Notes: a model not told the origin generated them from the sequence alone. A DNA stretch of 64,000 nt from Candidatus Rokubacteria bacterium RIFCSPLOWO2_02_FULL_73_56 (GCA_001788495.1 MGCF01000006.1:2106-66105), one strand, 5' to 3'. Numbered from the stretch's first letter, positions 1 through 48,844 are shown. Made by a program: numbers and translations.

Positions 1-1514
1 CCCGCCGCGGCGAGGCGCGCGCTCAGATGCTCGGAGGCGGCGACCGAGCGGGTGCCGACGAGAATCGGTCGTCCCTGCCCGTGGAGCGCGGCGATGCGCT
101 CCACCACCGCCCCCCACCTCGCCTCCGCGTCCCGATACACTCGGTCGGCATGCCGCCGCCGGCGGAGAGGCCGGTTGGTCGGGATGGACACGACCGGCAG
201 CCGATAGACCGACCAGAGCTCGGCCGCGGTCTCACGCGCGGTCCCGGTCATGCCGCACAGCATGAGATAGCGCCGGAAGAAGCGCTGGTAGCTGATGCGC
301 GTGAGCGCGTCGTGGCGCGCGCTGAGGGGGCATTCCTCCTTGACCTCGATGAGCTGGTGCAGCCCATGCTCCCACGAGCGGTCCGACATGAGACGCCCGG
401 TGTACTCGTCGATGATCTGCACCTTCCGGTCGCGCACGATGTAGTGCAGATCGCGGTGGAACAGGTGCAGCGCCGTGAGGGCCTTGGTGACCAGCTCCTC
501 CCGCCGGCGGCGGCCGGTCCACACGCCGCCGAGCGGCGGCGCGTTCTCGTCGAGCCGAAGCATGCCCGACTCGGTCAGCCGTGCCGCACGATCCTGCTCG
601 TCGATCGCGAAGTCGAGGCCGGGCGTCAGTCGTGACGCCAGGGCGAGTGCCGTCGAATAGAGGCGGCGCTCGCTCGCGGCGCCGGCGGCGCCGCCGCCGG
701 AAATGATCAACGGCGTGCGCGCCTCGTCGATCAGCACGCTGTCGGCCTCGTCGACGATCGCGTAGCTGAGCCCGCGCAGCACCAGCCGGCCGGCGCGGGC
801 GTCGTCGCCCGCGAGGCGCTCGAGCTGGAGCAGGGTGCGGCTGGCACGCGGTCCCAGAGCCAGCCGGTCTCGCAGGTAGTCGAACGCCACTTCCTTGTTC
901 GTGACGTAGGTGACGTCGGACGCGTAGGCGGCGCGCCGGTCCGCATGCTCCATCCCGTGGACCACGACACCGACCGTGAGCCCGAGCCCCCGATAGACCG
1001 GGCCCATCCACTCGGCGTCCCGGCGCGCCAGGTAGTCGTTGACCGTGATGACGTGGACCGGAATGCCGGCGAGCGCCGCCGTGCACGCGGCGAGCGTCGC
1101 GGTCAGCGTCTTGCCCTCGCCGGTTTCCATCTCCGCGACCATGCCGCCGAGCAGCACGCGTCCACCGACCAGCTGGACGTCGAAGTGACGCTCTCCCAGG
1201 GTCCGTTCGGCGACCTCCCGCACGAGGGCGAAGGCGCGGGCGACGAGATCGTCGACGAACCGGCGCGCGCGGAGCTCTCGACCGAGCCGCTGGGCCGCCG
1301 CGAGGATCGCGTCCTCGCCGAGCGTCGCGATCCCGCCGCCGTGCCGGTCGACGAGCGCGGAGAACCGCATCCAGCGTGCCCTGCGCACCGCTCGGTGACG
1401 CAGCAGGGGCGCCACGGCCCGAGCGGCAAGACGATCGAGGGCCCCAGGCGGACGCTCGCTACGCTCCGGATAGGCGCCGAGCGGGACCTCGGGGTGGACC
1501 GCGAGCCTAGACAT
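1..1514 (-). CDS. SecA-family translocase ATPase paralog, N-terminal ~504 codons. The C-terminus lies beyond the left edge, so there is no in-window stop and the gene is absent from the ORF track.
   Basis: My own translation of the minus frame gives MSRLAVHPEV...LGERHFDVQLVGGRVLLGGMVAEMETGEGKTLTATLAACTAALAGIPVHVITVNDYLARRDAEWMGPVYRGLGLTVG...YAIVDEADSVLIDEARTPLIISG...LHGQGRPILVGTRSVAASEHLS. Walker A GEGKT lies at ~1107-1121. ATG 1514 overlaps the TAG (1507-1509) of the upstream gene (ATGTCTAG). Confidence 0.85.
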   Translation of the reverse strand, partial: MSRLAVHPEVPLGAYPERSERPPGALDRLAARAVAPLLRHRAVRRARWMRFSALVDRHGGGIATLGEDAILAAAQRLGRELRARRFVDDLVARAFALVREVAERTLGERHFDVQLVGGRVLLGGMVAEMETGEGKTLTATLAACTAALAGIPVHVITVNDYLARRDAEWMGPVYRGLGLTVGVVVHGMEHADRRAAYASDVTYVTNKEVAFDYLRDRLALGPRASRTLLQLERLAGDDARAGRLVLRGLSYAIVDEADSVLIDEARTPLIISGGGAAGAASERRLYSTALALASRLTPGLDFAIDEQDRAARLTESGMLRLDENAPPLGGVWTGRRRREELVTKALTALHLFHRDLHYIVRDRKVQIIDEYTGRLMSDRSWEHGLHQLIEVKEECPLSARHDALTRISYQRFFRRYLMLCGMTGTARETAAELWSVYRLPVVSIPTNRPLRRRRHADRVYRDAEARWGAVVERIAALHGQGRPILVGTRSVAASEHLSARLAAA

Positions 1515-3654
1515 TGAAGCGCGAGAGGAAGAGCTGCCGGACCGTCCGGTACCACTGCAGGGCGAGCGGTCTCGAGCCGTGGTCGAAGCGCACGTACGCG
1601 CGGCCGCCGACGTTGAGCCGGAGGGACCGAGCCGCAAGCTCGACGTCCACCTGAAAGACCTTCTGGGTCGCCGTGACCCCCTTCGGGTCCCGCGGATCGA
1701 CGACGATCTGTCCTCCGCCAGCGCTGCCGAGCGCCGTCGTCGGCAGCCGCTCGCTCGCGGCCGGCACGATCCGGCGGAGCGTGGCGGGAACCGTGTCGGC
1801 GAGGCTCTCGGCGAGGCGCACCTCCAGCCCCACGGTATGGAAGCGGACCAGATCGATCGCGCCCTGGGGCACGGCGGCCCGGATCGTGACCGTGGCGAGC
1901 TCGACCACGTAGGCCAGCTGCTCGCCCTTCTTGACGAAGCGACCCGGCAGGTCCTCCGGCGTCGGCACGATGAACGCGCCCGCCGTGCCGCTGCGAACCG
2001 TCAGGGCCTCGACGCGCTCCAGCGCCTGGCCCAGATCTTGCCGCGCGTACCGCAGATCCTTCTCGATGATCTCGGCCTTCACCCGATCCACCGGGCGCTG
2101 CTCGTCGTAGCGCGCCTGGAGCTCGCGGACGCGCGCCCTGAGCATCGCCACACGGACGCCCAGATCGGAATCCCTGAGCACGATCAGCGCGTCGCCTTGC
2201 CGCACCCGGGAGCCCGACGACGCGACGAACCGCTCGACGAACCCGTCGGTGCCGGCCCGGACGAGCGACTCCTCCGGAATCCAGACCACACCCTCGACGA
2301 CGCTGCGATACGGGACCGGCGCCAGCGTCACCACGCCGACGGCGGCCGCGACGGCCGCGCCCGCGACGGCGAGCGCCCGCGCGCGGTGCTTGCGGAGGCG
2401 CGGACTCGCGAAGAGAAACCGCGCCCCCTTGCCGATCGGAACGCCGATCCAGCCGACGGCCGTCAGGCCCGCGAAGAACATCGCCAGCCAGAAGTACCGG
2501 TCGGCGATGAAGGCGATGATGGCGATCACCACGAGCACCCGGTAGGCGAAGGAGGCCGCCGCGTAGGCCACGAACCACGCACGCTCGCCGGCCGTGGCCA
2601 CGGCCAGCTCGGCCTCACGCTGCCCGAACAGGTAGCGTTCGCAGAGATACCCGAGGTACTTGTTGGACCGCTGCCGCAGGTTCGGAATCTCCAGGAGGTC
2701 GCCCAGGATGTAGTAGCCGTCGTACCGCAGCAACGGGTTTGCGTTGAAGAAGATCGTGGTGACCCCCGCGATCAGGATCACGTTGTAGGTGATCACGCGG
2801 AGCAGCCCGGCCTCGACGCTCAGCCAGACGTAGAGGGCCAGGGCCGCGAGGAACAACTCCACGGTCATCCCCGCGGCGCCGACGGCGATGCGCCGCCACT
2901 TGCTGCGGAACGCCGAGGCCGACGAGGCGTCCACGTACGGCACGGGCGTCATCACGAGGACCATGACGCCCATGTCGTGGACCTCACCACCGAATGCCTT
3001 CGTCGTGTAGGCGTGACCGAGCTCGTGCAGCGCCTTGATCAGGGGGAAGAGCAGCCAGATCGTGAACAGGGCCTGCATGGAGAACAGGCGATCGAGGGTG
3101 TCCCGGGTCAGGTCCGTCCAGTACACGCCGGCGAGGACGAGTGCCGGGAGGACGACCAGGACCCAGGCGACCGCCCCCGCCGGGCCGACGAGGGGTCTGA
3201 CGAGCGGGACCGTCGCTGCGAGGAACCGCTCGGGGTCGAGCAGCCGCATGCGCCACGAGAAGAAGCTGGAGACCCGGCCGAGCCACCTCCTCCGCTGCTG
3301 GCGTTCGTACCGCTCCAGCAGGTCCGCCGCGTCGGGCGGGACATCGGACTGGAGCACGTCGCTCGCGTGGAGCTGGCTCAGGAGCTGGATGACGTCCTCC
3401 TGGGTCGGGCCGTCGTCGCCCAGGCGCTCGCAGGCCGTTTCCCAGAGCTCCTGAACCGTGCGCCGGCCATCCATGAGCCCGATCACCAGATACGCCTGCG
3501 GGGTGAAGCGGTGAAAGCGCTGGCCGGCGCGGTCCTCCAGCACGTACCACGTCTTGCCGCGGTACCGGTGGCGGTGGATGTGCGCGTGACTCCTGAGCCG
3601 CGGCTGGAGCTCGGCGACCCGGTACCAGGAGCTGCTGAAGAGCGGTTGCGTCAC
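1507..3654 (-). CDS. Tri-domain membrane protein: PqqD/RRE-like N-terminus, M50 (site-2 protease type) zinc metalloprotease and a HlyD-type periplasmic adaptor
   Basis: This is the C-terminal 715 codons of track ORF 1507..4230. The start is taken as GTG 3654, 5 nt after the upstream stop. N-terminus: WYRVAELQPRL...GKTWYVLEDRAGQRFHRFTPQAYLVIGLMDGRRTVQELW (PqqD-like). HELGH lies at 3013-3027 followed by multiple TM segments. C-terminus: GDALIVLRD...coiled coil...GAFIVPTPEDLPGRFVKKGEQLAYVV (HlyD lipoyl/barrel-like). Confidence 0.8.
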   Translation of the reverse strand: MTQPLFSSSWYRVAELQPRLRSHAHIHRHRYRGKTWYVLEDRAGQRFHRFTPQAYLVIGLMDGRRTVQELWETACERLGDDGPTQEDVIQLLSQLHASDVLQSDVPPDAADLLERYERQQRRRWLGRVSSFFSWRMRLLDPERFLAATVPLVRPLVGPAGAVAWVLVVLPALVLAGVYWTDLTRDTLDRLFSMQALFTIWLLFPLIKALHELGHAYTTKAFGGEVHDMGVMVLVMTPVPYVDASSASAFRSKWRRIAVGAAGMTVELFLAALALYVWLSVEAGLLRVITYNVILIAGVTTIFFNANPLLRYDGYYILGDLLEIPNLRQRSNKYLGYLCERYLFGQREAELAVATAGERAWFVAYAAASFAYRVLVVIAIIAFIADRYFWLAMFFAGLTAVGWIGVPIGKGARFLFASPRLRKHRARALAVAGAAVAAAVGVVTLAPVPYRSVVEGVVWIPEESLVRAGTDGFVERFVASSGSRVRQGDALIVLRDSDLGVRVAMLRARVRELQARYDEQRPVDRVKAEIIEKDLRYARQDLGQALERVEALTVRSGTAGAFIVPTPEDLPGRFVKKGEQLAYVVELATVTIRAAVPQGAIDLVRFHTVGLEVRLAESLADTVPATLRRIVPAASERLPTTALGSAGGGQIVVDPRDPKGVTATQKVFQVDVELAARSLRLNVGGRAYVRFDHGSRPLALQWYRTVRQLFLSRFNV

Positions 3655-3659
3655 GGGCG

Positions 3660-5417
3660 CTACGGGAGCCAGGCCCAGAGCTTCAGCCGGAGCCAGTCGG
3701 CGGCCTGGCGTGTCCAGATCCAGACGAGCAGGTGCCGCCCGGACACGATCTTGCCGACCCCCTCCATGCCGGGCCGGAGACGCTGCGGCGCCCGATCGAG
3801 TCTCGCCTCCACGCGGAAAGAATTGCGCCCGTCGCGGGCCGTCGAGACGGGCGTGATCTTCGTCACCGTGAACGGCAGCGCGTCCGATGGCCAGGCAGTC
3901 AGGAGGAGCTGGCCTCGCTGGCCCACGGCGATGTCGGCGATGTCGCGCTCGTCGACCTCGAGCACCGTGCGGTAGCCGGCCAGCGGCGCGACCTCGAAGA
4001 GGGTCTGGCCCCGCTCGATCGGGGCGCCGAGCGACTGGCTCAGGTCTCCGGTCACGACGACGCCGTCGAACGGCGCCACGACGTGGGTGCGGGACAGATG
4101 ATCGTCGGTCAGGGCGAGCTGCGCCCGCGCCTGGTCGGCCTGGGCGCTCGCGATCTGGAGCGCGGCGGCGTCCCCCTTGGCACGGGCCTGGTCCCGCTGG
4201 CGGCTCAGCTGCTCGAGCTGGCCCTGCCACCTCGCCCGTTCGAGCCTGAGCTCGCGGTCGTCGAGCACCGCGAGCACCTGCCCCTCACGGACGGCGTCGC
4301 CGGCGCGGACCGGCGCGTCCTTCAGATAGCCGCTGAACGGGGCGACCGCGGCGATGCGCGTGCTCGGCTCCATCACGCTCCGGGCCGACACGCGGTAGTC
4401 CCCCTCGGCCAGCGCCAGGAACAGGCCCAGGGCCGTGAGCCCCGCCACGGTGAGCTTGAGTGCGGTATGCCGCGGACCGATGAGATGGCCGAGGTGGCGC
4501 AGTCCCACCTGGACCGCCTTCTCGATCAGCCAGCGATCGTCCCGGCGCTGCACCTCCAGCACGGGACCCGCGACGGCCGCGAGCGCCTCGCAGAACTCCA
4601 CCGTCGCCCGATCGAACGGCCGGTCGGCCCCCCGCTCCAGGGTCAGCGCGCCGACCACACGCGCCCCCTCCGCGAAGAGGACCGTGCAGATCGCCCCGGC
4701 GTTGGACTGCCGCGCCAGGTCGGCGTGGGCCCCGGTCACGCGCGCCTCGGCCCCCGGCGGTTCCGGGTAGACCACCGTCGCGCGCTGGTCCAGGGCCTCG
4801 TCCATCGCGGCGCCGATCGCGCGGATCAGATTCGTCTGCTTGGCGAAGTTCGCCGTGTGGGAGACGGCCCGCGGGTGCATCCGGCCGCGCTTGAGGAAGC
4901 CGACGCTCACCCGGTCGCAGCCCAGACGCGTGGCCAGAGTCGTGACGAAGGTCGTCGCCGCGCCGTAGAACCGCTCGTGGCCGAGGCTGCTCGTGACCAG
5001 CTCGAGGACCGTCTGCAGCCGCTGCTTCGACGCCTCGACGCTCCCCGGATCGAGCTGCGCGGCGCCGAGGCGGTGCACCAGCACCTCGAGCCAGCCGGCG
5101 CCCCACTGGAGCTGGCGCAGGACCCCTTCCAGCTCCGCCTGGGGCCGGGGTGCGATGTCGAGCGCGACGACGCCGTGCACCCGCCCGTTCGCCTGGATCG
5201 GATACGCGACGTCGTAGCGCTCACGGTCCCGCACCGACGCGTCCGTACCTGCCTCGCGCTTCAGGACGATACCGCGCCGCTCGGCGAGCGCACGCTCCGC
5301 GGCCTCGGCCAGATGCGCCGCGGCGCGAGAGCCTTCCGGCCAGAAGGCCGCCGGAGCGAACTTGCCCGTGGTCGGAGAGGCGGCGACGACGACGCCCCGG
5401 CCGACGCCCGGGATCAT
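3660..5417 (-). CDS. GAF-domain protein fused to a HlyD-family membrane-fusion/adaptor protein. The true N-terminus may lie further upstream (see findings).
   Basis: Track ORF of 585 aa. GAF-like segments: RFYGAATTFVTTLATRLGCDRVSVGF...ICTVLFAEGARVVGALTLER. One TM segment: LKLTVAGLTALGLFLALA. HlyD core: VRAGDAVREGQVLAVLDDRELRLERARWQGQLEQL...VVAPFDGVVV...GYRTVLEVDERDI. Confidence 0.8.
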   Translation of the reverse strand: MIPGVGRGVVVAASPTTGKFAPAAFWPEGSRAAAHLAEAAERALAERRGIVLKREAGTDASVRDRERYDVAYPIQANGRVHGVVALDIAPRPQAELEGVLRQLQWGAGWLEVLVHRLGAAQLDPGSVEASKQRLQTVLELVTSSLGHERFYGAATTFVTTLATRLGCDRVSVGFLKRGRMHPRAVSHTANFAKQTNLIRAIGAAMDEALDQRATVVYPEPPGAEARVTGAHADLARQSNAGAICTVLFAEGARVVGALTLERGADRPFDRATVEFCEALAAVAGPVLEVQRRDDRWLIEKAVQVGLRHLGHLIGPRHTALKLTVAGLTALGLFLALAEGDYRVSARSVMEPSTRIAAVAPFSGYLKDAPVRAGDAVREGQVLAVLDDRELRLERARWQGQLEQLSRQRDQARAKGDAAALQIASAQADQARAQLALTDDHLSRTHVVAPFDGVVVTGDLSQSLGAPIERGQTLFEVAPLAGYRTVLEVDERDIADIAVGQRGQLLLTAWPSDALPFTVTKITPVSTARDGRNSFRVEARLDRAPQRLRPGMEGVGKIVSGRHLLVWIWTRQAADWLRLKLWAWLP

Positions 5418-5576: not shown

Positions 5577-5915
5577 TTACGACGCCGCCGGCGCGTCGGC
5601 CTGCGCTCCCTCGACCTGGACGGCGCCAAACCGGGCTTCATGTTCCCGCAACACGTTGGCCAGGAGCGTCGACAGCCGCTTGGCGACGAACGGGTTGAGG
5701 ATGAGTCGGTCGGTGAGCTGCACCGTCACGTCCTTCTGCCCGGCGTGCCACGCCTGGTTGATGCCGAAGAGCAGGACGACCTCCTCGCGCGTGCTCGCGA
5801 CGTTGCAGACGTTCGAGTACGAGCTCTTCATCCGGGAATCGTCCCACTTGATGGTGAGCTGCTGGGCCGTGCGCTCGGGCCCGGCCACAGCTTCGCGTTC
5901 ACGCTCGTCCGCCAT
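5577..5915 (-). CDS. DUF3467-like small protein, copy A
   Basis: Internal ATG (codon 112) of track ORF 5577..6248, preceded by GGAGAGGAG. Sequence: MADEREREAVAGPERTAQQLTIKWDDSRMKSSYSNVCNVASTREEVVLLFGINQAWHAGQKDVTVQLTDRLILNPFVAKRLSTLLANVLREHEARFG. It matches my recollection of the DUF3467 pattern (YaN...s..Ef.l.FG......RiilsP..AKrL...L......YE..fG). Confidence 0.8.
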   Translation of the reverse strand: MADEREREAVAGPERTAQQLTIKWDDSRMKSSYSNVCNVASTREEVVLLFGINQAWHAGQKDVTVQLTDRLILNPFVAKRLSTLLANVLREHEARFGAVQVEGAQADAPAAS

Positions 5916-5944: not shown

Positions 5945-6892
5945 TCAGCTCGATGGGGTCCGGGTCAGTATGCCCGGCGGCCGCGGAGCCTCGGCCGCTC
6001 GAATGGGCACGAGCTCCGCGGCGTGCCACCCGTACCTCGCCGCGTAGGCCGCGTTGAGCCCCAGGCACCGCGTCGAGCTGCACGCCTCGCGATGCACGCA
6101 CTGGTAGAAGCCGTTGCGCCGGAACTCGGTCCAGAAGGCGGGGTCGATGAACAGCCGCGGCTGCGAGTTGTCGAGCGTGTCCCCGTCCTCGCCCAGCAGG
6201 CAGTGCGGAAAATTCTTGACCATGACGCCACGGTCGAGCGCGTGGCATCTGGCGATCGCCGTCCTCAGGAAGGGGAGCACCTCGAGGTGGGATGCGCCCA
6301 GCTCCTTGACGTCCTGCTCGTTCATGGCGAAGTAGACCCAGAACTCGTGCTGGACCATCCGCCGCAGGTGTCCGAGCCGGTCGACGAGCCGGGGCAGATG
6401 CCGGTAGCTCTTCACCGTGACGACGGTGTTCGTGAGGGTCGCGACGCCCGGCAGCGCGTCCAGGTTCTCCAGGCCCCGGAGGGTCTTGTCGAACGATCCC
6501 GGCACTGTCGTGATCGCGTCGTGCGTCTCGGCGTCCGCGGCGGTGACGCTCACGAAGAACTCGTCGACTCCCGCGTCGACCAGCTCTCGGCAGTAGGCCT
6601 CGCTCGCCAGGCGCATCCCGTGCGTCTGGATCCGCACGTGCTCGAAGCCCCTCCGCCGCGCCTGTCTGGCCAGCTCCGGCAGGTCACGCCGCAGCGTGAT
6701 CTCCGCCCCGGTGAGGATCAGACCCGTCCACCGTCGGTGCGTCGCGTTGTAGTCCAGGAGCTGCTCGAACCGGCTGAGCGACTCCGGCTCCAGCCGGTCC
6801 ATGGTGTCCTCGATCATGCAGTGGACGCAGGCCAGATTGCAGCGGAACTCCAGCGTCATCGACACGTAGCGATCGTCGTCAAACCGTCCCAC
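5945..6892 (-). CDS. Radical SAM enzyme with a Cys-rich C-terminal region that may hold an auxiliary cluster
   Basis: Track ORF of 315 aa. CNLACVHC (CxxxCxxC) at codons 18-25. GLILTGAEITLRRDLPELARQARRRGFEHVRIQTHG is TIM-barrel rSAM-like. C-terminal cysteines: HCLLGEDGD...FYQCVHREACSSTRCLGLN. Confidence 0.85.
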   Translation of the reverse strand: MGRFDDDRYVSMTLEFRCNLACVHCMIEDTMDRLEPESLSRFEQLLDYNATHRRWTGLILTGAEITLRRDLPELARQARRRGFEHVRIQTHGMRLASEAYCRELVDAGVDEFFVSVTAADAETHDAITTVPGSFDKTLRGLENLDALPGVATLTNTVVTVKSYRHLPRLVDRLGHLRRMVQHEFWVYFAMNEQDVKELGASHLEVLPFLRTAIARCHALDRGVMVKNFPHCLLGEDGDTLDNSQPRLFIDPAFWTEFRRNGFYQCVHREACSSTRCLGLNAAYAARYGWHAAELVPIRAAEAPRPPGILTRTPSS

Positions 6893-7187
6893 GGGGCTTC
6901 CCTTCCCTCTCGGCTCGAGTCGCCGGGGACCCTGCGCCCTCGAACCGCGCCTCGTACTCCGCGACCACCCGGCCGAGCAGCACGGCGAGCCGCTTCGCGA
7001 CCGGCGGACTCAGCACGATCCGCTGGCCGAGATCGACGACGAGCTCCTGGCGGTCGGTCCGCGAGGCGCGGCTCACGCCGAACGACAGGACGAACTCCGC
7101 GTCGCTGGTCGATACGTTGCACTGGTTCGCGTGCATCCGCCTGGCGCTCGCGTCGTCCCAGCGGACCCGGGCGGCGCCCGAGCTCAC
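6879..7187 (-). CDS. DUF3467-like small protein, copy B (divergent)
   Basis: In track ORF 6879..7235. The start is taken as GTG 7187, forming a GTGA overlap with the methyltransferase stop. Sequence: (V)SSGAARVRWDDASARRMHANQCNVSTSDAEFVLSFGVSRASRTDRQELVVDLGQRIVLSPPVAKRLAVLLGRVVAEYEARF. Confidence 0.7.
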   Translation of the reverse strand: MSSGAARVRWDDASARRMHANQCNVSTSDAEFVLSFGVSRASRTDRQELVVDLGQRIVLSPPVAKRLAVLLGRVVAEYEARFEGAGSPATRAEREGKPRGTV

Positions 7188-8275
7188 GGCTTCGTCCCCG
7201 TGACCAGGAAGAACGGCGTCTCGAGGTCGATCCACCGGACGTCGACGCCGCGGAACCCGAGTGCGCCGAGCTGATCAACGTACGCCGCCGGCGAGCGAAA
7301 CGAGCGGAAGAACAGCAGCAGCGGGATCATCGCGTATGACGGCGCGCCGGTCGCGACCGGTCCCCGCTCGAAGATGAGGAGCGTTCCCCCGGGCTTCAGC
7401 GCCTCGCTCGCCCGGACGAGCAGACGCCTCGCGTCCCGCTCCGGCCAGTCGTGCAGCATGGACTTGAACGATACCAGATCGCGCCCGCCGGGCAGCGGAT
7501 CGGTCAGCGCGTTCCCCCGGACGAAGTCGATCCGCGCGCCTTCGGGCTCGCGCTCCACGTGTGCGCGGCCGATGTCGCACACCACGGGCAGGTCGAACAC
7601 CGTCGCCGTGACCGCCGGGTACCTCCGACAGATCCGGAGCGCGAATTCCCCGCTGTTGCCGCCGACGTCCAGGACCCGCTCGTGGCCCCCGAAGTCGTGA
7701 TGCTGCAGGCACACCCCGGCCTCGTACTTCGTGAGACACGTGGTGATGCGCATCCACCGTCGGGTCGCCTCGTAGTCCTCGGCGCTCGCCCCGAGCGCCC
7801 GGTCGTAGGAGAACAAGCGAAAGGTGCGGGCCTGACGCCGGAACGTCTCGGGGTCCCGGATCGCCGCCGTGAACAGGTCCGTGAAGTCCGGCAGCACCAG
7901 CGCGGCGTACTCGAGCTTCGTCTCGAGCAGGTCACGGAAGCGGAGGGCCCTCCGGAAGTCCTCGCTCAGCGCGACGCCTCGCGGCCGTTCCTCGACGACG
8001 CGGTTCGTCCGGAGCAGGTCCAGCAGCAGCCGCAGGCCGCGGCCGTCGCCCGGGAACCCCGTCGCGAGATCCGCGACGGCCATGGCCTCGTGGGCAGCCA
8101 GCCGGTCGATCACCCGGAGCTCGAACGCCGTCTTCAACGCCCGTGCGTCGATCAGGGTCGTGAGAAAGCCGTCGACACAGAGGTACTCCCGCTCGTCTGT
8201 GGGCTCCATGGACGCCGCCGGCGGCGGGCCCACCGCGAGGCCCCGAGCGCGGTCGGTCACGTCAAAAGACTCCAT
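7184..8275 (-). CDS. Class I SAM-dependent O-methyltransferase (family-2 type with N-terminal dimerisation/wHTH domain)
   Basis: In track ORF 7184..8335. Start choice is ATG 8275 (MESFDV). SAM motif: VLDVGGNSGEFALRICRRYP. DFVRGNALTDPLPGGRDLVSFKSMLHDWPERDARRLLVRASEALKPGGTLLIFE is typical of Methyltransf_2 enzymes. Confidence 0.8.
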   Translation of the reverse strand: MESFDVTDRARGLAVGPPPAASMEPTDEREYLCVDGFLTTLIDARALKTAFELRVIDRLAAHEAMAVADLATGFPGDGRGLRLLLDLLRTNRVVEERPRGVALSEDFRRALRFRDLLETKLEYAALVLPDFTDLFTAAIRDPETFRRQARTFRLFSYDRALGASAEDYEATRRWMRITTCLTKYEAGVCLQHHDFGGHERVLDVGGNSGEFALRICRRYPAVTATVFDLPVVCDIGRAHVEREPEGARIDFVRGNALTDPLPGGRDLVSFKSMLHDWPERDARRLLVRASEALKPGGTLLIFERGPVATGAPSYAMIPLLLFFRSFRSPAAYVDQLGALGFRGVDVRWIDLETPFFLVTGTKP

Positions 8276-9134
8276 AATAGGCGCTCTTGAGGAACACCAG
8301 CCTGCCACCCTCCATACGGTAGTCGATCCCGACATCGTACAGCATGTGGCTCAGACTCGGCCGGTTCCTTTCGACGAACGACACGATCGCTTCCGGATAC
8401 GCCAGCCGCCGCAGGAAGAAGAGGAACTGATCCACGTCAATCCCGACGAAGTAGACGGCATCGTTCCGCTTCTTGTTCGCCACCACGATCACCCGGCACT
8501 TCTGCAGCTCCGGCCACAGGATCTCCTCGATCGGCACCCGCGTGGCGTCCATGTACGCGGAACACCCGGCCTTGTCCTTGATCTCCGCGAGCTGCGAGCG
8601 CGCGTCGAAGAAGAAGTAGAAGTTCTCGAGGGCGGTCCCGCGCTTCGTCAGCGAGTAGCAGATGCCCCCGGAGACCGTGCTCCCGGGCGTCCCGACATAC
8701 ATGTGGATCTCGTCCAGGGAGGCCGTCCCCGTCAGCAGCGACGGGCCCACGTCGAGCGAGAACATGAAGTACGGCAGGCGCTCGTTGACCGGGACGTCGC
8801 AGCGCACCCGAGGCCGGAGCGCCTCGGCGACTCGCGTGATGGAGCGCGTGCGCTCTCGGCGCCGATAGTCGTAGAAGTAGAGCTCCCAGCGCAGCTCGCC
8901 CCCGATCCACTTGACTCCGAAGACCGTCTTCGACACGCCGATCGCCTGCCGGAGGAGCGGCACCAGGTCGAAGCATTCCTCTCCCACCCCCGCGACCTCG
9001 AACGACCGGAACAGCAGGTTCACCGATCGAAACTTGCCGCCCGGGGGCGCGACCGGCTCGTACTCCCACAGGCAGAAGTCCTGCAGCGTCTCCCCCTCCG
9101 CCGCGTACTCGAGGCGCTCGTCGAGCGTCTTCAT
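8262..9134 (-). CDS. Unknown 290-aa protein (X2), paralogous to the C-terminal domain of the next gene. Its strand/helix pattern is reminiscent of ABBA (PT-barrel) prenyltransferases.
   Basis: Codon 295 onward of track ORF 8262..10016, with an ATGA overlap with the upstream stop at 9131. Sequence: MKTLDERLEY...VFGVKWIGGELRWELYFYDY...YFMFSLDVG...IHMYVG...ICYSLTKRGTALENFYFFF...AVYFVGIDV...LYDVGIDYRMEGGRLVFLKSAYYGVF. Confidence 0.6.
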   Translation of the reverse strand: MKTLDERLEYAAEGETLQDFCLWEYEPVAPPGGKFRSVNLLFRSFEVAGVGEECFDLVPLLRQAIGVSKTVFGVKWIGGELRWELYFYDYRRRERTRSITRVAEALRPRVRCDVPVNERLPYFMFSLDVGPSLLTGTASLDEIHMYVGTPGSTVSGGICYSLTKRGTALENFYFFFDARSQLAEIKDKAGCSAYMDATRVPIEEILWPELQKCRVIVVANKKRNDAVYFVGIDVDQFLFFLRRLAYPEAIVSFVERNRPSLSHMLYDVGIDYRMEGGRLVFLKSAYYGVF

Positions 9135-10252
9135 TGCGCGCCGAAGTAGATGGAGAGGAAGTCCTTGCCTTCCCGGTCGAAACCGCCCGTCACGTGCCCG
9201 AAGGGCGCCGCGCTCACCTGCGCGTACGCCGCCTCGAACCGGTCCGCGGAGATCGCGTAGTGCTCGCAGATCCTGAGGAACAGGGCGTGGAGATCGCGCA
9301 GCCGCAGTCGCGCGTTGTAGAGGTTGATGTCGAACGAGTTCCGCGGGTTCCCCTCCTCGGTGGTCTCCAGGTACAGGAATCGATCGGCGGCCACCCGGCC
9401 CGCGGCCTGCAGGACGATCTCGCGCGCGAGCGCGAGCGGGGTACCGGAGGGGCCGCCCGCGAAGGCGCGGGCCATCCGCTCCAGCATGTCGTCGGTGGAG
9501 AGCCCGGGATGGCACGTGTACCGCGCGACGGAGCACCGCCGGCTGTCGTCGGCATCCCACTTGAATCCCAGGTACATGAGGAGGGGATCCCGCCGGTTCT
9601 CCGCCTTGGCCCTGACCAGTCTCCCCCCGAATTCCAGATAGGCCTTGTAGCGCTGCGTCCGCTCGCTCTCCTCGAAGCCGAAGAAGACGATGTTGGCCTG
9701 GAAGATGTTCTCGCGGAACGCCGCCACGAAGCGCTCCGGCATCCGGAGGCGCTCGCAGATCGCCAGGAGGCGCCCGCCGGCGTCCTCGCTGAGCGAATCC
9801 CGCTTGAAGCCCCACAGGAACCGGTTCGCGAGCAGGGTCCGCTCGAACATCTTGAAGGAGCGCTCGAGCACCGGCTGGACTCCGAGGTCCTCGACGAGGC
9901 GAAGCAGCTCGGCGGCCTGCTCGGGGATGCCTTCGGTGAGCGACACGGGCGACTTCCGGCTGGAGAGCGGCGCCGCCGGCGGCAGCGGCTCGCCCCCGAG
10001 CGAGCCGTGCTCCCACTCGTAGTCCCGGACGGCGTGCGCCAGCATGGCCGCGAGCCGCTTCGCGGTGGAAGGGCTCAGGACGATCCGGTCGGACACCTCG
10101 AGCACGAGCTCGTCGGTGCCGGGCACCCGGCGCCCCTTGCTCCCGAAGGACAGGGTGACCTCCGAGCGATCGGCGGACAGCTCGAACACGTTCGCGTAGC
10201 TCGTGCTCGCATTCGAGCCTTCCCAGCGCACCGGGACCCGAGCCTCAGACAT
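9131..10252 (-). CDS. Fusion protein (X1): N-terminal DUF3467-like domain (copy C) plus a ~270-aa unknown domain paralogous to X2
   Basis: Track ORF of 373 aa with GGAGGG 6 nt upstream. N-terminus: VRWEGSNASTSYANVFELSADRSEVTLSFG...LEVSDRIVLSPSTAKRLAAMLAHAVRDYEWEHG. C-terminus: IVFFGFEESERTQRYKAYLEF...LLMYLGFKWD...NSFDINLY...FGHVTGGFDREGKDFLSIYFGAQ. Confidence 0.75.
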   Translation of the reverse strand: MSEARVPVRWEGSNASTSYANVFELSADRSEVTLSFGSKGRRVPGTDELVLEVSDRIVLSPSTAKRLAAMLAHAVRDYEWEHGSLGGEPLPPAAPLSSRKSPVSLTEGIPEQAAELLRLVEDLGVQPVLERSFKMFERTLLANRFLWGFKRDSLSEDAGGRLLAICERLRMPERFVAAFRENIFQANIVFFGFEESERTQRYKAYLEFGGRLVRAKAENRRDPLLMYLGFKWDADDSRRCSVARYTCHPGLSTDDMLERMARAFAGGPSGTPLALAREIVLQAAGRVAADRFLYLETTEEGNPRNSFDINLYNARLRLRDLHALFLRICEHYAISADRFEAAYAQVSAAPFGHVTGGFDREGKDFLSIYFGAQ

Positions 10253-10345
10253 CGGGGCCCTCCGCGCCCGACGGGTCGGCGGGGCCGACGCCGCCGCGTC
10301 CGCTCCTACCCGCCTCCACCGCCGGGATCAGTCTCCCTCGACACG

Positions 10346-13300
10346 TCACGCTCCGCTGATCGCGGTCGCGGGGCTCGCCTCGACCAGCTCGATGTCCGGG
10401 GCCACGTCGATGCTCCAGTCCAGGAGGTGCGACTCCGCCGACTCCGGCCGACTCAGCTCACCGCGCCGCGCGGCCGTCGTCAGGCTGCTCCAGAGATCCC
10501 CCGCCGCGTCGCCGTCGAAGATCCGGAAGTCGCGCAGGGCCGCCAGGACCCCGCCGCCGCGCTGCTCGTCGCGCGTGCTCAGGCCCGCGAACGCCCCCGC
10601 CGACCAGTCGATCCCCGGCGCGGCCGGTGCGAGGCGCACCGGCCCACCGAGCGCGACCTCGACAGGCTGCGCGGAACCCGTGTCGTGCGCGACGAGCCGC
10701 TCGCCCTGCGTCAGCGTCGGCGACATCACGTCGGCCACGCCCTCGTGCGCGAATCCCATCACGTGTCCGAGCTCGTGCATGGCCACCGTCAGCAGGTCCA
10801 CGCCGCCACTGCCGCCGCCGACGATCCAGCCGTACCCTGCAGCGTCGGCGTCGAAGACGATCGAGCGGCCCACGGTGGTGGCGAGCACCGGCCCGTCGAG
10901 CTCCGCGACCGCGAACCGGAAGTCCGCCAGCGCCCCCAGCCGCGAATCCCCGTTGCCCAGCGTGTCGGTCCACTGGCGGATCGCCGTGTCGACCGCGCCG
11001 TCCAGCGTGCGGACGTCGAGCGTGCCGGTCGCCGCCGGTGCGGACGCGATGGCCGCCGCTTCCATGTTCTGGCCGCCCGACTGCGCGAAGGCGGGATCCG
11101 TCGTCTTGATCGTGACGTTGTCGAAGCTCGCCGCTCCGCCGGTCGCGAACACGCCGAATCCGCCGTCCACGACGACCGCGTTGAACGCGAAGCCGACGAC
11201 CGCCTGACCGTTCAGCGTCACGCTGACCGTCGACCCCTTCAGCGAGATGCCCAGCGTGTAGTCGGTGCCCGCGTTGATCGTCCGGGCCACCGACGCGTCG
11301 ATGACCCAGCCGTTCTTCGCCGTGTAGTGCCCGATCACGACCTTGTCCGCGGGCGCGTCGATCGCGACGAACTTGAAGTCGTCCCCCTCGTACCGGTCGA
11401 AGACGAAGCCCGCGCGGCCCTGCGTGTTGACGATCGAGGACAGCTCGAGCACCGACGATACCTGGAACCCGCCGACGCCGAGGTCGATCAGCTTCGCCGC
11501 GGTCCCGCCCGAGGGCGGCACGGCCACGTAACGGCCGCCGCTCACGGCCCACGTTCCGCTCGTCGCGCCCGTGAACAGGTCGGCGACGCCGTCGCCGAAG
11601 TCCTCGGTCGACTGGAACGTCGCGGCCGCCTGCACCACCTGCACCTGGACGTTGTCGAACGAGCCGCGCGAGTTGTCCGAGCCCACCCCGACGAGGCCCC
11701 AGTTCAGGCCGTACGACCAGCCGTCGATCACCCGCGGCGCGAACGTGTAGGTCAGCGAGTCCTTGTTGTTGACGATGATCGTGGCGTTGAGGCCGTTGAT
11801 CGACAGCATCATGTTGTAGTACGTGTCGGCCTTCGCCAGGAACGGCGTCTGCTTGTCCACGTGCCAGCCCGAGGCGTCCCGGTGGCCGGCCACCAGCTTG
11901 TTCGTGGAGATGTCGATGCCGGTGAACTTGAAGTCGGTCTTCGTGTTGTAGTCGAAGATCAGGTAGGCGTTCCCCTTCCAGCCTGCCGTCGGCTTCACCA
12001 CGTCGACCGACGCGAGCATCTCGAAGTAGGCGGGCAGCGCGTCGCCGACCTGGTACACGGCGACCGCGTCGCCGCCCAGCGACTGCGCCGACACCTGGAG
12101 CGCGCCGCCCGAGACCGTCCACGCCCCGGAGTCGGCGAAGAACGCCTGGGCCGTACCGTCGTTGAAGTTCGCCGACCGCAGCACGTCGCGCTTGCCGCCG
12201 GGAACGTTCCCCGGCTGCGGGTCCGTGGGCGCGCCGGTCTGGTCGTGCCACGCGAAGTCCTGCTGCCTGATGACGGCGAGCTCGCCCTCCGGCTCGCCGT
12301 TCCGCGTCGGGTCCGCGCCCGTGTCGGCGGCGCGCGTCGGGTCGGCGCCGTCGTTGGCCGACAGCTGGTAGAGGAATTCCGCGAGCTGCGGCTGCAGCGT
12401 GCGGCTCACCGTCGCCATGCCGAACGGCGCAAACGGCACGAGGTAGCTGTTGAACTCGCCGGCCCAGTCGATGAGCCGGTCGCCGCCCGTGTTGCCGATC
12501 AGGACGTCGCGGCCGGCTCCGCCGAAGGCGCGGTCCTCGTAGCTGGCGGCCGTGTCGGGCGCGTTGTTGAGCCCGCCCGCCGTGGTCAGCACGTCGTCGG
12601 CGTTGAGCAGGTCGTTGCCCCAGCCGCCGTAGAGGTCGTCGCGACCCGTGCCGCCGACGAGCCAGTCGTTGCCCGTGTCGCCGAAGAGCGCGTCGTTGCC
12701 GTCGGAGAAGATCCCCGTCGCGACCTCCGCGCCCTCGGTGCTCACGAAGTTGAGGAAGAACTCCTTGCCCGCGCCCGTCTTCGACAGCTCGCCCACGTCC
12801 GTCAGCAGGATCTTCCGCAGCGGATCGTACTCGTCGTACAGCGCGAACTCGCCCGCGCGCCGCGTCCGGTCGACGTGCCAGCCGTCCGGGTCGTCCGGGT
12901 TGAAGCGGAGGATGTCGCCGTCCGCGAGGTTGAGCGGATGCCCGTAGTCGGTGCGGATGACGCCGATGAGCAGGTCGGTGGCGTCGTACAGCTGCGCGTA
13001 GGACTCGACCGGTGCCTCGGCGCCGGAGATCGCGTCGTCCCCCGAGCCGCCGTGGAGCGTGTCGTTGCCGACACCGCCGTAGATGATGTCGTCCGACTTG
13101 TGCGCGACCGTCGCGGAGCCGCCGAACTCGTCCTGGGTGCCGTTGAAGGTCACGTCCACGCTGAACGGCGTGAGGTCGGCCGTCTTCTTCAGCTGGCCGC
13201 TCACGTTGATGGTCGCCGACTGCACGTTGCCCGGCGTCGTGATGAGCAGGTCGAGCTGGCCGGCGAGGCTGCCGATCCCGTACAGCGGCTCCGCCGTGCC

Positions 13301-16300
13301 GTTCCGGCTCGTGAAGAGCCGGCCGTCGTCGCCGAGGACGCCGTCGTCGCCGGCGCCGCCCGAGATCCAGTCGTTGCCGTAGCCGGCCACGAGGTCGTCG
13401 TCCTGCCCCTCGCCGAAGAGCACGTCGTTGCCCTTCATGCCGTAGACGACGTCGTCGCCGCCCTCGCCGTGCAGCTCGTCCGCCGCGCCGATGTCGGTCG
13501 CCGCCTGCGCCGCCGTCGGCGCGTAGTCGAGACCGCCCGGGGTGTAGTCGACGAGCTGGACGCCGCGCACGACGATCTTCGCCTGCGGCACCGCCGGCGG
13601 GTCGTTCGTGTAGGTGTCGTAGTTGAAGGCCAGGAAGCCGCCGAACATCTCCACGCCGCCGCCGCCGCCCGGCGCGTCGTTGACGCCGAGCAGCCGATAG
13701 ATGTTGCCGTTGTCGCCGAGGATCACGTCGGCGTCGGTCGCGTGGCCCTGCGGCGTCAGGTTGCCCGCGTCGTTGCGTGCGACCGCGGTCCCGGAGCCGC
13801 CGAAGACGAGGTCCGAGCCGTCCGGCCGTTGGTTCGGCGTCTCCAGGCTGAACAGCGTCGAGCTGCCGCCGATGATGTCGTCCTGGCCCTGGTTGCCCAG
13901 GATGACGTCGTTCCCGCCGTTGCCCTCGACGTAGTCGTCGCCGTCGGTGGCCGCGTCGAAGGACGGGTTCAGGACGAGGGCGTTGCCCGCGTCCCGGGAG
14001 GCGCCGACGCGCGAACCGTTGCTCACGAAGTCGATCGAGCCGTCGCCCTGGATCACGTCGTCGCCGAGCTCGCCGAAGACCGTGTCGTCGCCGCCGCCGC
14101 CGGCGATGTAGTCGTTGCCGTAGAGGACGGCCGGCGTGCCGTTGGCGTGGTCCAGGAGCGTGATCTGGAAGTCGGCCCAGGCCGCGCTCCCACGCGGGTC
14201 CGCGTACTGGCTGGCCGAATTGATCAGGAGCTGGCCGGCCGTGGCCGCGGCGGTGCTGTAGACCTGCGTGCCGCTCAGCACCCGGAACCGCGGATTGGTG
14301 AAGTCGCCGAGCGTCAGCGACCGGTCGAGCGACACGTTGTCACCGAAGATCAGGTCCTTGTCCAGGCCGCCGTCGATGGCGTCGCTCCCGGTATTGCCGA
14401 TGAGGATGTCGTCGCCGGCGTTTCCGTACATCGTGTCGTCGGCGCCGTCGCTGTTGCTCTTGCTCTCCACCTGGATCACCCCGGCCGTCGACAGCAGCGT
14501 CTCCGCGATCGTCTGCGTGACGAGGCCGAAGTCGCCGAACTCGATGTCGGCGCCGCCGTCGCCGAAGAGCGTGTCCTGGCCGGGCGTCAGCGTGTCGTGC
14601 GTGTCCGGCGGGAACCCGGGAATGGGCGCCGACACGGCGAACACCGTGACCAGCTCGCGGTCGTAGAGCGTGCGGTCGATGACACCGCTGTCCTGGTTCG
14701 GCTCGGGGATGCTGACGGTCGTCTTGTGGACGTTGAACCCGTCGTCGCCGTAGATGATGTCGTCGCCGTCCTGGCCGTGGATCGTGTCGTGGCCCGAGCC
14801 GCCGGCCAGGTGGTCGCCCGCCTGGCTGCCCCAGATCGTGTCGTCGCCGCGCCCGCCGAAGATCGTGACGCTCTGGGTGGCGTTGCGCGCGTCGATCACG
14901 TCGTCGCCGGGGTTGTTGAAGGCGATCGCGTGCACCGACGCCACGCCCGACGTGCCGACGTACCGGCTACCGTCCTGCGAGGTGTCGCCGAAGACGACCA
15001 GCGGCGAACCCGCACCGCCGCCGCCGTTGATGGTGATGGTGTCGCTGCCGCCGCCGCCGTGCACGAGGGTGAGCGGGCCGCGGGTGCCGTCGGGCGCGGC
15101 CATCGTGCCGTCGATCGTCAGGCTGTCGTCGCCGCGGCCGAGCATGACCTCGAGCGTCTCGACCATCGTGTAGTTGATGCCCTTGGCGAAGTCGTGCGGC
15201 GTCCCGTCCTCGCCGACGAAGTGCAGGTCGGGGCCCATCCCGTTCATGAACAGGTTGCTGCCCGTCAGCGTGCCGACGTCGTTCGCGCCGCTGCCGTCGT
15301 TGAAGATGTTCAGCGTGTCGACCGAGCCCGTGTCGTCCGTGGTGATGACCTCGCCGACCGGGCCCGGATCGGTCTCGGTCGGCAAGATCACCGCCCGCCT
15401 GATCGAGCGGTCTTCTGGCCCGACGCTGCCGTCGATGGTGAGCGCTCCCTGGATCGCCGTGCTCGCCACGTGCGGCTGCACCGGGAAGAATTTCAGCGGC
15501 TGGATCTCGTCCGTCGGCGGGGCCTGCGGATTCGCCGTGACCCTGACGACGAACGGCGTGAACCAGTTGGTCGCGTCGAAGGTCACCGTGGCCGGGGTGA
15601 CGACCAGGCCGTCCGCGTCGAGGACGGCCGGGGTGAAGACCGGGCCGCCCGGCGGCACGACCACCGCCGAGTCGACCAGCGTCTGGTCGTCCGTCAGGAG
15701 GGCGATCGTCACCGCCGCCGCCGGCGCGTGCGTCAGCCGCAGGCTGTACGTGTCGCCGGTCGGGTCGCCCTTCACCACCAGCGTCGATCCGTCGGTCTCC
15801 CGCACGTAGACGCCGGCTCCATCCGTGTCGATGAGCTTGACGTTCAGCTTCGGAGCCGGCTTCGTCGCGAAGAAGCTTGTGTAGCTCGCGTCGGTGCCGC
15901 CCACCGCATGGCTGATCTGCGCCGTCACGGGATTCTGGACGACGAAGTCCTGGGCGGCCGCCACGTCCACGGTCGCAGCCACGTCCCAGTTGGACTCGTC
16001 GAACGTGAACGTCTGTGTCCCGGCGTTGTATCGCGGGTCGAGGCTCGAGAGCGCCAACCGCGCGTCGCTCGGACTCAGCGTCACCGTCACGGTCTGGCCC
16101 GCCGCCGGCGCCTTCGCGAGCTCCAGCGTGTAGCTGTCGGTGAGGCCGTGCGTGCCGGCCGCAGCGTCCTCCTCGAGCACCACCGTGTCCAGGTCGGTAT
16201 GCGTGAGGCGCAGCCCGGGCTGGTCGTCGTCGAGGACCCGCACCTTCACGTTGCGGATGGCCACGTGGTTGAAGTCGTCGTCCAGGCTACGGCTGCTCAT

Positions 16301-41130: not shown

Positions 41131-41815
41131 TGACCCGCTCGTCGGCCTGGATCGCGCCGGGCGGCCCCTCGGCGATCTTCTCGCCGTGGTCCAGCACGAA
41201 CACGGTCTCGCAGAGCCCCATGACGACCTTCATGTCGTGCTCGACGAGGAGCACGGTCTTGCCCCGCTCGCGCAGCTGCCGCACCGCCTCCAGCAGGTCG
41301 TTCAGCAGCGTGCGGTTGACGCCGGCAGCGGGCTCGTCGAGCAGCACCAGCGTCGGGTCGCGCATCAGCATGCGGGCGAACTCGACGAGCTTCTGCTGGC
41401 CGTAGGAGAGGTTGCCCGCGTACTCGTCCTGCAGGGCCTCGAGCCGGACGAACCGGAGCAGCTCGAGCGCGCGCGCGCGCGCTTCCTCGAGGTGGCCGCG
41501 CGTCACGACGAGGAGGTTCTCCAGCGCGGTCAGCTCGGGAAACACGCGGATGATCTGGAACGTGCGCCCGATCCCCTTGAGGGCGATGCGCCACGGCGGC
41601 AGCCCGTCGATGCGCTCGCCGTTCAGGAGGACCCGCCCGGCGTTGCGTCGCTCGAGGCCGGTGACGCAGTTGAAGAGCGTCGTCTTGCCCGAGCCGTTCG
41701 GGCCGATCAGGCCGTAGATCCGGCCGGCGGCGAGGCTGAGCGAGACGCCGTCCACGGCGGCCACGCCGCCGAAATGCTTGTGGAGCCCCTCGACCTCGAG
41801 CACGGGCGCCGGCAT
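41108..41815 (-). CDS. livG: Branched-chain amino acid ABC transporter ATP-binding protein (LivG type)
   Basis: Track ORF of 235 aa. LEVEGLHKHFGGVAAVDGVSLSLAAGRIYGLIGPNGSGKTTLFN...LSYGQQKLVEFARMLMRDPTLVLLDEPAAGV. Confidence 0.9.
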   Translation of the reverse strand: MPAPVLEVEGLHKHFGGVAAVDGVSLSLAAGRIYGLIGPNGSGKTTLFNCVTGLERRNAGRVLLNGERIDGLPPWRIALKGIGRTFQIIRVFPELTALENLLVVTRGHLEEARARALELLRFVRLEALQDEYAGNLSYGQQKLVEFARMLMRDPTLVLLDEPAAGVNRTLLNDLLEAVRQLRERGKTVLLVEHDMKVVMGLCETVFVLDHGEKIAEGPPGAIQADERVIEAYFGR

Positions 41816-42863: not shown

Positions 42864-42889
42864 GCCGAGCGCCGCGAGGAGCGCGCGCT

Positions 42890-43768: not shown

Positions 43769-43813
43769 CGCGGGGTCCGCGAGGCCGGCACGAACCGGCG
43801 GACGCTCAAGCGC

Positions 43814-48786: not shown

Positions 48787-48844
48787 GCTGAACAAGCTCC
48801 TCCCGCACACCCTGCCCGGCGGCCTGCTGCTCCTCGGAGCCGCC

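Follow-up and report, generated by a model that had tools for sequence, protein, structure and literature searches.

Gene string and core module

We describe here a 64,000-nt stretch of DNA (the window, in what follows) from Candidatus Rokubacteria bacterium RIFCSPLOWO2_02_FULL_73_56 (GCA_001788495.1, MGCF01000006.1:2106-66105), and in particular a three-domain gene close to its first letter. This gene encodes a protein of 715 amino acids (aa), referred to below as the fusion protein, in which a PqqD-type recognition element for RiPPs (peptides made on the ribosome and modified after translation), or RRE, is joined to an M50-type intramembrane site-2 protease (S2P) core and a HlyD-type adaptor. 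The fusion protein is one component of a conserved gene module, in which it stands between a GAF-HlyD protein and a truncated SecA paralogue, sometimes together with a short HlyD protein and TolC, and it is a typical member of a known, uncharacterised family. The same gene string carries a giant open reading frame (ORF) with a LEPR-XLL domain at its N-terminus, which we propose as the substrate. The features on which the argument turns are as follows (TM, transmembrane):

1507-3654, minus strand: RRE(PqqD)-M50-HlyD fusion gene, from ORF and start analysis, the identical public protein, homologues and domain searches
3355-3597, minus strand: PqqD/RRE winged-helix domain, aa ~20-100, predicted to be cytoplasmic
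2314-3204, minus strand: polytopic M50/S2P core plus the TM helix leading into the adaptor, aa ~151-447, ~7 TM segments
3013-3027, minus strand: HELGH, the motif for zinc binding and catalysis, aa 210-214, where TM2 ends, read from the sequence
2716-2745, minus strand: NANPLLRYDG, aa 304-313, the second S2P motif, with the third zinc ligand D312
1510-2313, minus strand: HlyD-type adaptor, predicted to be periplasmic, aa ~448-715, with lipoyl-like strands, an alpha-hairpin (496-549) and a beta-barrel
3660-5417, minus strand: GAF-HlyD partner, 585 aa, with a GAF domain, one TM segment and HlyD (GAF, HlyD_3 and RND_mfp matches)
1-1514, minus strand: SecA paralogue, of which the first 504 codons lie inside the window, cut by the window edge
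10346-34285, minus strand: giant 7,979-aa ORF, the proposed substrate, with RTX-type calcium-binding repeats and, towards its C-terminus, a weak serralysin-like match
34040-34105, minus strand: LEPR-XLL domain of the giant, aa 61-82 (NF012209, E 3.6e-7, 29.5 bits, cut-off 17)

The fusion gene begins with a GTG at 3654 and ends with a stop codon at 1507-1509, so that the coordinates which the initial annotation had given for the gene and for its HELGH motif are correct, and a protein identical over all 715 aa exists in public metagenome data (P0001). Five bases (3655-3659) lie between the GAF-HlyD stop and the fusion start, while the ATG of the SecA paralogue at 1514 overlaps the fusion stop codon (8-base overlap). 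Read along the minus strand, the gene order is the 7,979-aa ORF, a DUF3467 fusion, a 291-aa protein of unknown function, an O-methyltransferase, DUF3467, a radical-SAM protein, DUF3467, GAF-HlyD, the fusion gene and the SecA paralogue. The giant ORF has a third-position GC content (GC3) of 0.97. A longer reading of the fusion ORF, to 4230, was rejected: the extension (3655-4230) is a by-product of the ~70% GC content and runs into the gene upstream. Two antisense ORFs on the plus strand, at 1579-3975 (798 aa) and 9134-20083 (3,649 aa), are likewise not genes. Such long antisense and extension ORFs are artefacts of a GC content of 70-77%, because they have the wrong codon-position GC pattern and overlap real genes.

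Domain architecture and predicted topology

The initial annotation had placed a PqqD-like domain, an M50 protease and a HlyD adaptor in one polypeptide, and this was confirmed by profile searches, by the predicted fold and by the recurrence of the architecture in other genomes. For the N-terminal domain, Pfam PF05402 (PqqD) matches aa 41-100 at E 2.9e-5 (24.7 bits against a cut-off of 23.4), scores 28.5 bits on the isolated domain, and is matched individually by 17 of 20 diverse orthologues. When the first 135 residues of 20 orthologues were made into a profile and compared with the PDB, the top sequences were PqqD 3G2B (E 1.5e-4), in a match spanning essentially the whole 95-aa protein, and then 5SXY and 5VRD; a full-length sequence search of the PDB with the fusion protein gave zero matches. 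In an AlphaFold2 (AF2) model built with 54 homologues (mean pLDDT, the per-residue confidence score, 82.2), aa 24-97 adopt the order strand-strand-strand-helix-helix-helix of the winged-helix RRE fold, followed by a membrane core of helices, in which aa 227-242 form a short strand pair, and by a lipoyl/hairpin/barrel unit at the C-terminus.

The central domain is a divergent one. Pfam Peptidase_M50 (PF02163) covers aa 203-447 at 22.1 bits, below its cut-off of 27.2, and of the three profile assignments expected from the initial annotation it is this one that fell short, while those of PqqD and HlyD were above cut-off. The fold of the core is clearly similar to RseP, MjS2P and SpoIVFB, and we therefore regard it as a divergent subfamily of M50. 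Both sequence hallmarks of S2P enzymes (HExxH and NxxPxxxxDG) are present, with HELGH in predicted TM2 and NANPLLRYDG in TM4. Among NCBIfam models the best match is NF041824 (daptide biosynthesis intramembrane metalloprotease), which aligns aa 18-401 to profile positions 1-360 of 379 at E 4.6e-48, and which is also the best NCBIfam match for two distant orthologues, from Rhizobacter (L020) and Mariniblastus (L058); the score of 164.3 bits stays under the equivalog cut-off of 300. NF058609 (YydH/LiaK) comes second.

The C-terminal part matches Pfam PF13437 (HlyD_3) at aa 570-635 with 31.5 bits against a cut-off of 22.2, in addition to a sub-threshold match to HlyD_D23. Foldseek comparison with the PDB is dominated by periplasmic adaptors, with MexA, MacA, AcrA, ZneB and EmrA at E ~1e-12, and the lipoyl-like, alpha-hairpin and beta-barrel domains of a HlyD-type adaptor all follow a TM anchor.

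Hydropathy analysis gives ~7 TM segments (~156-178, 191-213, 256-276, 283-305, 362-384, 390-408 and 427-447), the last of which is preceded by a loop (aa 409-426) with seven K/R residues. On the question, raised at the outset, of the side on which the PqqD-like domain sits, the resulting topology predicts a cytoplasmic RRE, with both zinc motifs where TM2 and TM4 end on the cytoplasmic side and the HlyD domain in the periplasm. The last of these placements fits, because an adaptor could function in no other arrangement. Thus homology and predicted structure support the reading of the three parts as binding, cleavage and conduit domains, from which we infer the functions themselves.

Distribution and conservation of the fusion family

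The architecture is common. With a word-indexed search we found at least 6,405 proteins at E<=1e-5, with source names such as ‘putative peptide zinc metalloprotease’, ‘PqqD family peptide modification chaperone’ and ‘HlyD family efflux transporter periplasmic adaptor subunit’; the top 120 matches are all ~715 aa long and come from Rokubacteria/Methylomirabilota. When the representatives at 50% identity were searched exhaustively, at least 4,297 clusters matched at E<=1e-30, and the best 150 of these are nearly all 700-740 aa long and align end to end, the few shorter ones being probably partial. Since the same end-to-end arrangement recurs in thousands of proteins, the three-domain architecture is not a product of chance.

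Conservation was assessed in an alignment of 52 orthologues from Rokubacteria, Proteobacteria, Lentisphaerae, Verrucomicrobia and Planctomycetes. H210, E211, H214, N304, N306, P307 and D312 do not vary at all (100% conserved), unlike the positions next to them. The invariance of the zinc site across such distant phyla argues that proteolysis has been retained. The best-conserved domain of all is the RRE, with invariant positions that lie within strand 3 and helix 3 or next to them. RREs bind their leaders around strand 3 and helix 3, and the conservation seen in the alignment would fit a ligand that is itself conserved across phyla.

A conserved module around the fusion gene

We surveyed the neighbourhoods (10-kb flanks) of the gene at 65 loci in species-representative genomes, spanning Rokubacteria, Burkholderiales (including the cultured Rhizobacter, Pelomonas, Ramlibacter, Aquabacterium and Roseateles), Gammaproteobacteria, Desulfobulbus, Magnetococcales, Lentisphaerae, Verrucomicrobia, Planctomycetes and Saprospiraceae. 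The fusion orthologue directly follows the GAF-HlyD gene in 53 of 58 evaluable loci and directly precedes the SecA paralogue in 48 of 53, the exceptions being frameshifted assemblies or the most distant homologues.

The SecA paralogue is not a canonical SecA or SecA2. Full-length orthologues measure 659-674 aa and retain three domains, SecA_DEAD, PP_bind and P-loop_SecA, and with them the ATPase motor and the preprotein-binding part. Against the 789-position SecA profile they cover no more than positions ~28-606, they score below every SecA and SecA2 cut-off, and they gave no match to PF07516, the wing/scaffold domain. Among the conserved module genes we saw an ABC exporter at none of the 65 loci. 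One of them (L069) has, further downstream, a pair of ABC-2 genes that looks unrelated.

Several genomes have a third, short protein (~250-350 aa) with HlyD alone after the SecA paralogue:

L069, 14216-15443: short HlyD-only protein
L003, 6724-7614: short HlyD-only protein
L012, 6232-7134: short HlyD-only protein
L017, 14258-14995: short HlyD-only protein
L032, 14250-15302: short HlyD-only protein

At the first of these loci a DUF3467 gene comes next; the window ends before the corresponding position. A TolC/OEP gene stands next to the module at 13/65 loci. In the 64,000 nt of the window we found neither a TolC nor a SapC gene, and a TolC could be encoded elsewhere in the genome.

The slot before GAF-HlyD varies with lineage, being filled by DUF3467 at 15/65 loci and by SapC at 19/65. 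In Burkholderiales and Gammaproteobacteria a SapC-family gene (PF07277, ~250 aa) takes the place that DUF3467 has in Rokubacteria:

L013, L015-L017, L020, L021, L025, L026, L033-L035, L052, L056, L060 and L065: SapC in the slot directly upstream of GAF-HlyD

The giant LEPR-XLL protein as candidate substrate

A large gene is a frequent neighbour of the module. A co-directional ORF of >900 aa abuts it at 29 or more of the 65 loci; most of these ORFs extend past the end of the 10-kb flank, and several show homology to the C-terminus of the giant in the window. Where N-termini of large neighbouring ORFs could be seen, all ten, from several phyla, carry a LEPR-type motif (six ORFs starting just after the SecA paralogue, three at L064, L040 and L057, and the giant of the window). 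The shared pattern is Φ-x-Φ-E-x-[LIM]-E-x-R-Φ-L-L-[ST]-[AG], of which FALETLEPRLLLSA, ALEALEPRLLLSG, RFEAIEPRLLLSA and DLEQLEARILLSG are examples from neighbouring ORFs. The motif is preceded by 20-83 K/R-rich residues and by no Sec-type hydrophobic stretch (maximum 15-residue hydropathy 1.33). Counted over the ~510,000 residues of the ORFs at these loci, it occurs 8-9 times, solely at those N-termini, as against 0-0.2 times in shuffles.

In the giant of the window, LEPRLLLSA occupies aa 66-74 (34064-34090), after a 65-aa leader with 16 K+R against 4 D+E residues and no Sec-type hydrophobic region. A 7,548-aa counterpart of this giant is found in a syntenic relative (L070). The LEPR-XLL domain is, as judged from sequence, the proposed RRE ligand and candidate cleavage region. 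Its motif alternates hydrophobic and acidic residues in a strand-like pattern, of the kind that a strand-binding RRE would be expected to read. The LEPR-XLL N-terminus had been the first candidate substrate from the start, and with the motif at all visible N-termini next to the module it is also the one we favour.

Giants of this kind have been noted in other lineages. In Chlorobium chlorochromatii, the LEPRxLL giants Cag_663 and Cag_665 have SapC and TolC genes on their flanks, with SapC preceding the giants; they are expressed and have been found in the partner bacterium, and expressed along with them is a ‘recently acquired secA’ (2026 C. aggregatum preprint). The LEPR-XLL giants of this species measure 20,647 and 36,806 aa. 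A Vibrio subclade likewise has an LEPR-XLL protein of ~8,000 aa with RTX and serralysin domains, like the giant described here (genome note).

DUF3467 proteins and other genes in the window

The window encodes three DUF3467 proteins, all within the gene string:

5577-5915, minus strand: DUF3467 protein, 112 aa, directly upstream of GAF-HlyD (PF11950, E 1.2e-21)
6879-7235, minus strand: second DUF3467 paralogue, 118 aa (PF11950, E 2.5e-15)
9131-10252, minus strand: third DUF3467 plus a ~290-aa domain, 373 aa in total, directly downstream of the giant gene (PF11950 at aa 6-85)

The same DUF3467 fusion is present in the syntenic locus L070. Its ~290-aa domain has no Pfam or NCBIfam match, and shows no similarity to the 291-aa protein of the string. 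Stand-alone homologues of the domain (E ~1e-33) were noted near the module in Magnetococcales and Rubrivivax genomes:

L050, 15390-16229, minus strand: stand-alone homologue of the ~290-aa domain
L060, 15103-16011, minus strand: stand-alone homologue of the ~290-aa domain

The DUF3467 core is very strongly conserved and the tails are short; gammaproteobacterial copies end at ‘...HGALG’ and have no tail. No homology to SapC was found with hhalign, there was no relative in the PDB, and the AF2 model was unusable (pLDDT 54). The variable tails of these proteins had been put forward as an alternative substrate for the protease. That suggestion is disfavoured by the survey, in which DUF3467 is missing at most loci, SapC takes its slot at 19 and some copies lack a tail altogether. 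DUF3467 is more likely an accessory than a substrate, because it is mostly missing while the RRE stays conserved, because SapC replaces it, and because it also comes straight after a giant gene in a setting that lacks the three core genes. Judging from this pattern of occurrence, it is probably an accessory factor for the giant protein and not a protease substrate.

Interleaved with the DUF3467 genes are three further genes that are absent from the loci of other phyla:

8262-9137, minus strand: 291-aa protein of unknown function
7184-8335, minus strand: O-methyltransferase
5945-6892, minus strand: radical-SAM protein (no match to SPASM seen)

Both the 291-aa protein and the methyltransferase are found again at L005, L006 and L070, and the radical-SAM gene at L001 and L070. 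This set possibly serves to modify the giant protein or DUF3467.

The remainder of the window looks like housekeeping:

41108-45025, minus strand: branched-chain amino-acid ABC uptake operon
48614-49996, plus strand: GGDEF diguanylate cyclase
52956-55268, minus strand: MoxR-type AAA+ ATPase and DUF58 pair

Proposed function and alternatives

With a probability of roughly 0.5, judged from sequence, we propose that the fusion protein is the recognition and processing subunit of a type-I-like trans-envelope exporter that works without an ABC transporter and carries giant LEPR-XLL proteins. In such a system the RRE would take hold of a freshly synthesised giant by its amphipathic, strand-like LEPR-XLL motif, and the SecA-like ATPase would supply energy in place of the ABC transporter of a classical type I secretion system (T1SS). 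The M50 core would then remove the leader at or near the motif, as has been proposed for the protease MpaP acting on daptide precursors, and may also contribute to passage through the inner membrane. The HlyD domains of the fusion protein and of GAF-HlyD (and the third HlyD protein, where present) would build a periplasmic tube to a TolC-type channel, with the GAF domain as a regulator, and DUF3467, or SapC in other lineages, could act as an accessory factor or chaperone. Somewhat less confidently, and at a little under even odds, we suggest that the module may represent a distinct and as yet unnamed secretion class, in which giants carry a RiPP-like leader that an RRE reads and an adaptor-fused M50 protease cuts, while a SecA-derived motor drives export through HlyD and TolC.

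Several observations weigh against this proposal. RRE binding, cleavage and export are all functions that we infer, and they go beyond domain identity, topology prediction and gene linkage. The M50 core is sub-threshold in Pfam, and the match to the daptide protease model is well short of its equivalog cut-off. The linkage of motif and module was counted one way, from module loci to their neighbours, and at one locus (L066) the three core genes stand among housekeeping genes and no giant gene lies within 10 kb. The window is without a TolC gene. Site-2 proteases normally cut hydrophobic or TM segments, and LEPRLLLSA is short. Lastly, the RTX calcium-binding repeats of the giant cluster in its last ~2,000 aa; in classical T1SS, C-terminal RTX repeats go with C-terminus-first secretion and a C-terminal signal, and an N-terminal secretion leader therefore sits uneasily with them.

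The position of the repeats fits equally well with a different scheme, in which the giant exits C-terminus first through the HlyD/TolC conduit, as T1SS substrates do, the RRE holds the LEPR-XLL leader in the cytoplasm so that the giant remains tethered to the cell surface by way of the channel, and cleavage by the M50 core, perhaps under control of the GAF domain, frees it. Such a scheme would be functionally analogous to the way in which LapG and LapD control giant adhesins of the LapA type, except that it would act from the cytoplasmic side. The fusion of a GAF sensor to the partner adaptor speaks for such retention and release, and the scheme draws on the same linkage of the module to motifs at its neighbours' N-termini as our proposal does. 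However, the module lacks an ABC transporter and anything else that would recognise a C-terminal signal, and SecA motors push polypeptides from N to C; we regard it as unlikely, although it is the strongest of the alternatives. Appreciably less probable is that the M50 domain does not cut at all and is mainly a membrane scaffold or pore in place of the ABC membrane domain, with the RRE as a mere receptor. The protein has indeed been proposed as a possible inner-membrane pore (Kamneva, Poudel & Ward 2015), and its Pfam similarity to M50 is weak, but the complete conservation of the zinc and catalytic residues of both S2P motifs in 52 orthologues is hard to explain without catalysis, and the closest characterised relatives have been assigned as leader peptidases.

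The neighbourhood also bears on what the module might otherwise do. Three DUF3467 genes interleaved with radical-SAM and O-methyltransferase genes, a set found again at L070, could be taken for a RiPP pathway in which DUF3467 tails are modified by these enzymes, cut by the RRE-M50 part and exported via the HlyD domains, and RRE-M50 relatives do act in RiPP maturation. We consider this improbable, as the RRE is conserved everywhere while DUF3467 occupies its slot at fewer than a quarter of the loci, with SapC there at more of them; the DUF3467 core is the conserved part, its tails are short or absent and one copy is fused to a 290-aa domain; the modifying enzymes are confined to a few Rokubacteria loci; and DUF3467 follows a giant gene even where the core genes are absent. 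We give least credence to regulated intramembrane proteolysis in signalling, in the manner of RseP or SpoIVFB, with the HlyD-like domain as a periplasmic sensor unrelated to transport of the giant. Although the core fold matches RseP, MjS2P and SpoIVFB, no conserved sigma or anti-sigma gene was found in the neighbourhoods, and the conserved partners are two more adaptors, an ATPase motor and TolC, which points to a function in transport rather than signalling.

Significance

LEPR-XLL proteins are among the largest known in bacteria, and they have neither a Sec signal nor a dedicated ABC exporter. The module of M50-HlyD, GAF-HlyD and truncated SecA is widespread and has been without a known substrate since 2015. 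The present analysis ties the two together and assigns the fusion protein a testable role, in which its RRE reads the LEPR-XLL leader and its M50 core cuts. If this is true, tripartite secretion systems would have a new principle of energising and recognition, RREs would reach beyond the biosynthesis of small peptides, and the leader logic of RiPPs would have been co-opted to secrete the largest known bacterial proteins, including those of 20,000-36,000 aa in the ‘Chlorochromatium aggregatum’ symbiosis. How the giants are exported can be tested directly in hosts that have been cultured; the well-studied species Methylobacterium extorquens, Ruegeria pomeroyi, B. avium and Achromobacter xylosoxidans are genetically tractable.

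Comparison with known systems

The module was delineated by comparative genomics as a secondary SecA_DEAD protein with Peptidase_M50/HlyD, GAF/HlyD and HlyD proteins and sometimes OEP (Kamneva, Poudel & Ward 2015, PLoS One, PMC4452313), in hosts that include the four cultured species just named. Its authors suggested that the SecA domain replaces the ABC ATPase, that the M50 protein is a possible pore and that the whole has a T1SS-like role; they noted no ABC exporter in the module and left both function and substrate open (PMC4452313). The same gene set in the same order is found in the window (3660-5417, 1507-3654 and 1-1514) and at 48-53 other loci of our survey, and the proteins of their cluster 1 named ‘peptidase, M50 family’, e.g. 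META1p2401 of M. extorquens, SPO2714 of R. pomeroyi and BAV1942 of B. avium, are orthologues of the fusion protein. The word ‘PqqD’ does not occur in that paper and no substrate is named; the link to LEPR-XLL proteins, the catalytic invariance and the Rokubacteria members are added here.

Daptide clusters provide the closest domain parallel, in that an RRE is fused N-terminally to the site-2 protease MpaP, which was assigned by the authors as the leader peptidase. Both MpaP (NF041824) and YydH/LiaK (NF058609) share with the fusion protein an N-terminal RRE followed by an HExxH intramembrane metalloprotease. The fusion protein is nevertheless not an MpaP by the equivalog score, and the window holds no daptide precursors and no MpaB/C/D/M genes. 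Unlike MpaP, it adds a C-terminal TM helix and a ~270-aa HlyD adaptor, and its candidate substrate is a protein of ~8,000 aa, not a short peptide. Daptide leaders have the motif ELExMEAP and then an aliphatic-rich stretch, and aa 61-74 of the giant (34064-34105), reading A-L-E-x-L-E-P-R and then LLL, resemble this E-L-E-x-M-E-A-P plus aliphatics. By analogy, the likeness could reflect a shared mode of recognition. Since both the Kamneva module and RRE-M50 peptidases of daptide clusters had already been described, the fusion as such is not new.

Classical T1SS (HlyB-HlyD-TolC) likewise use HlyD-type adaptors; a TolC-type outer-membrane factor is present at some module loci, and the candidate substrates are giant and rich in RTX. 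The defining ABC transporter is lacking, however, the truncated SecA paralogue being the only ATPase of the module. PCAT exporters (peptidase-containing ABC transporters) have a leader protease built into the export machine, as is proposed here for the fusion protein. In the module, unlike in T1SS and PCAT systems, the protease is fused to the adaptor and not to the transporter, and the conserved tag of the candidate substrate is N-terminal.

A further parallel is offered by the control of LapA-type giant adhesins, in which LapG is a periplasmic cysteine protease and LapD a receptor for cyclic di-GMP. Common to LapA/LapG/LapD and the system described here are a giant RTX protein, a proposed N-terminal protease target and a sensor domain in a membrane partner, whereas the protease of the module is a cytoplasm-facing intramembrane metalloprotease and its sensor a GAF domain, so that no homology is implied. 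The fusion protein also differs from RseP, SpoIVFB and MjS2P in having no PDZ or CBS domains, in its RRE and adaptor fusions and in its transport-type neighbourhood. A search of the literature for LEPR-XLL, DUF3467, RRE/M50/HlyD combinations and the locus tags of cultured hosts found no functional study, and the link between the module and LEPR-XLL giants, not found in the searchable literature, appears to be new.

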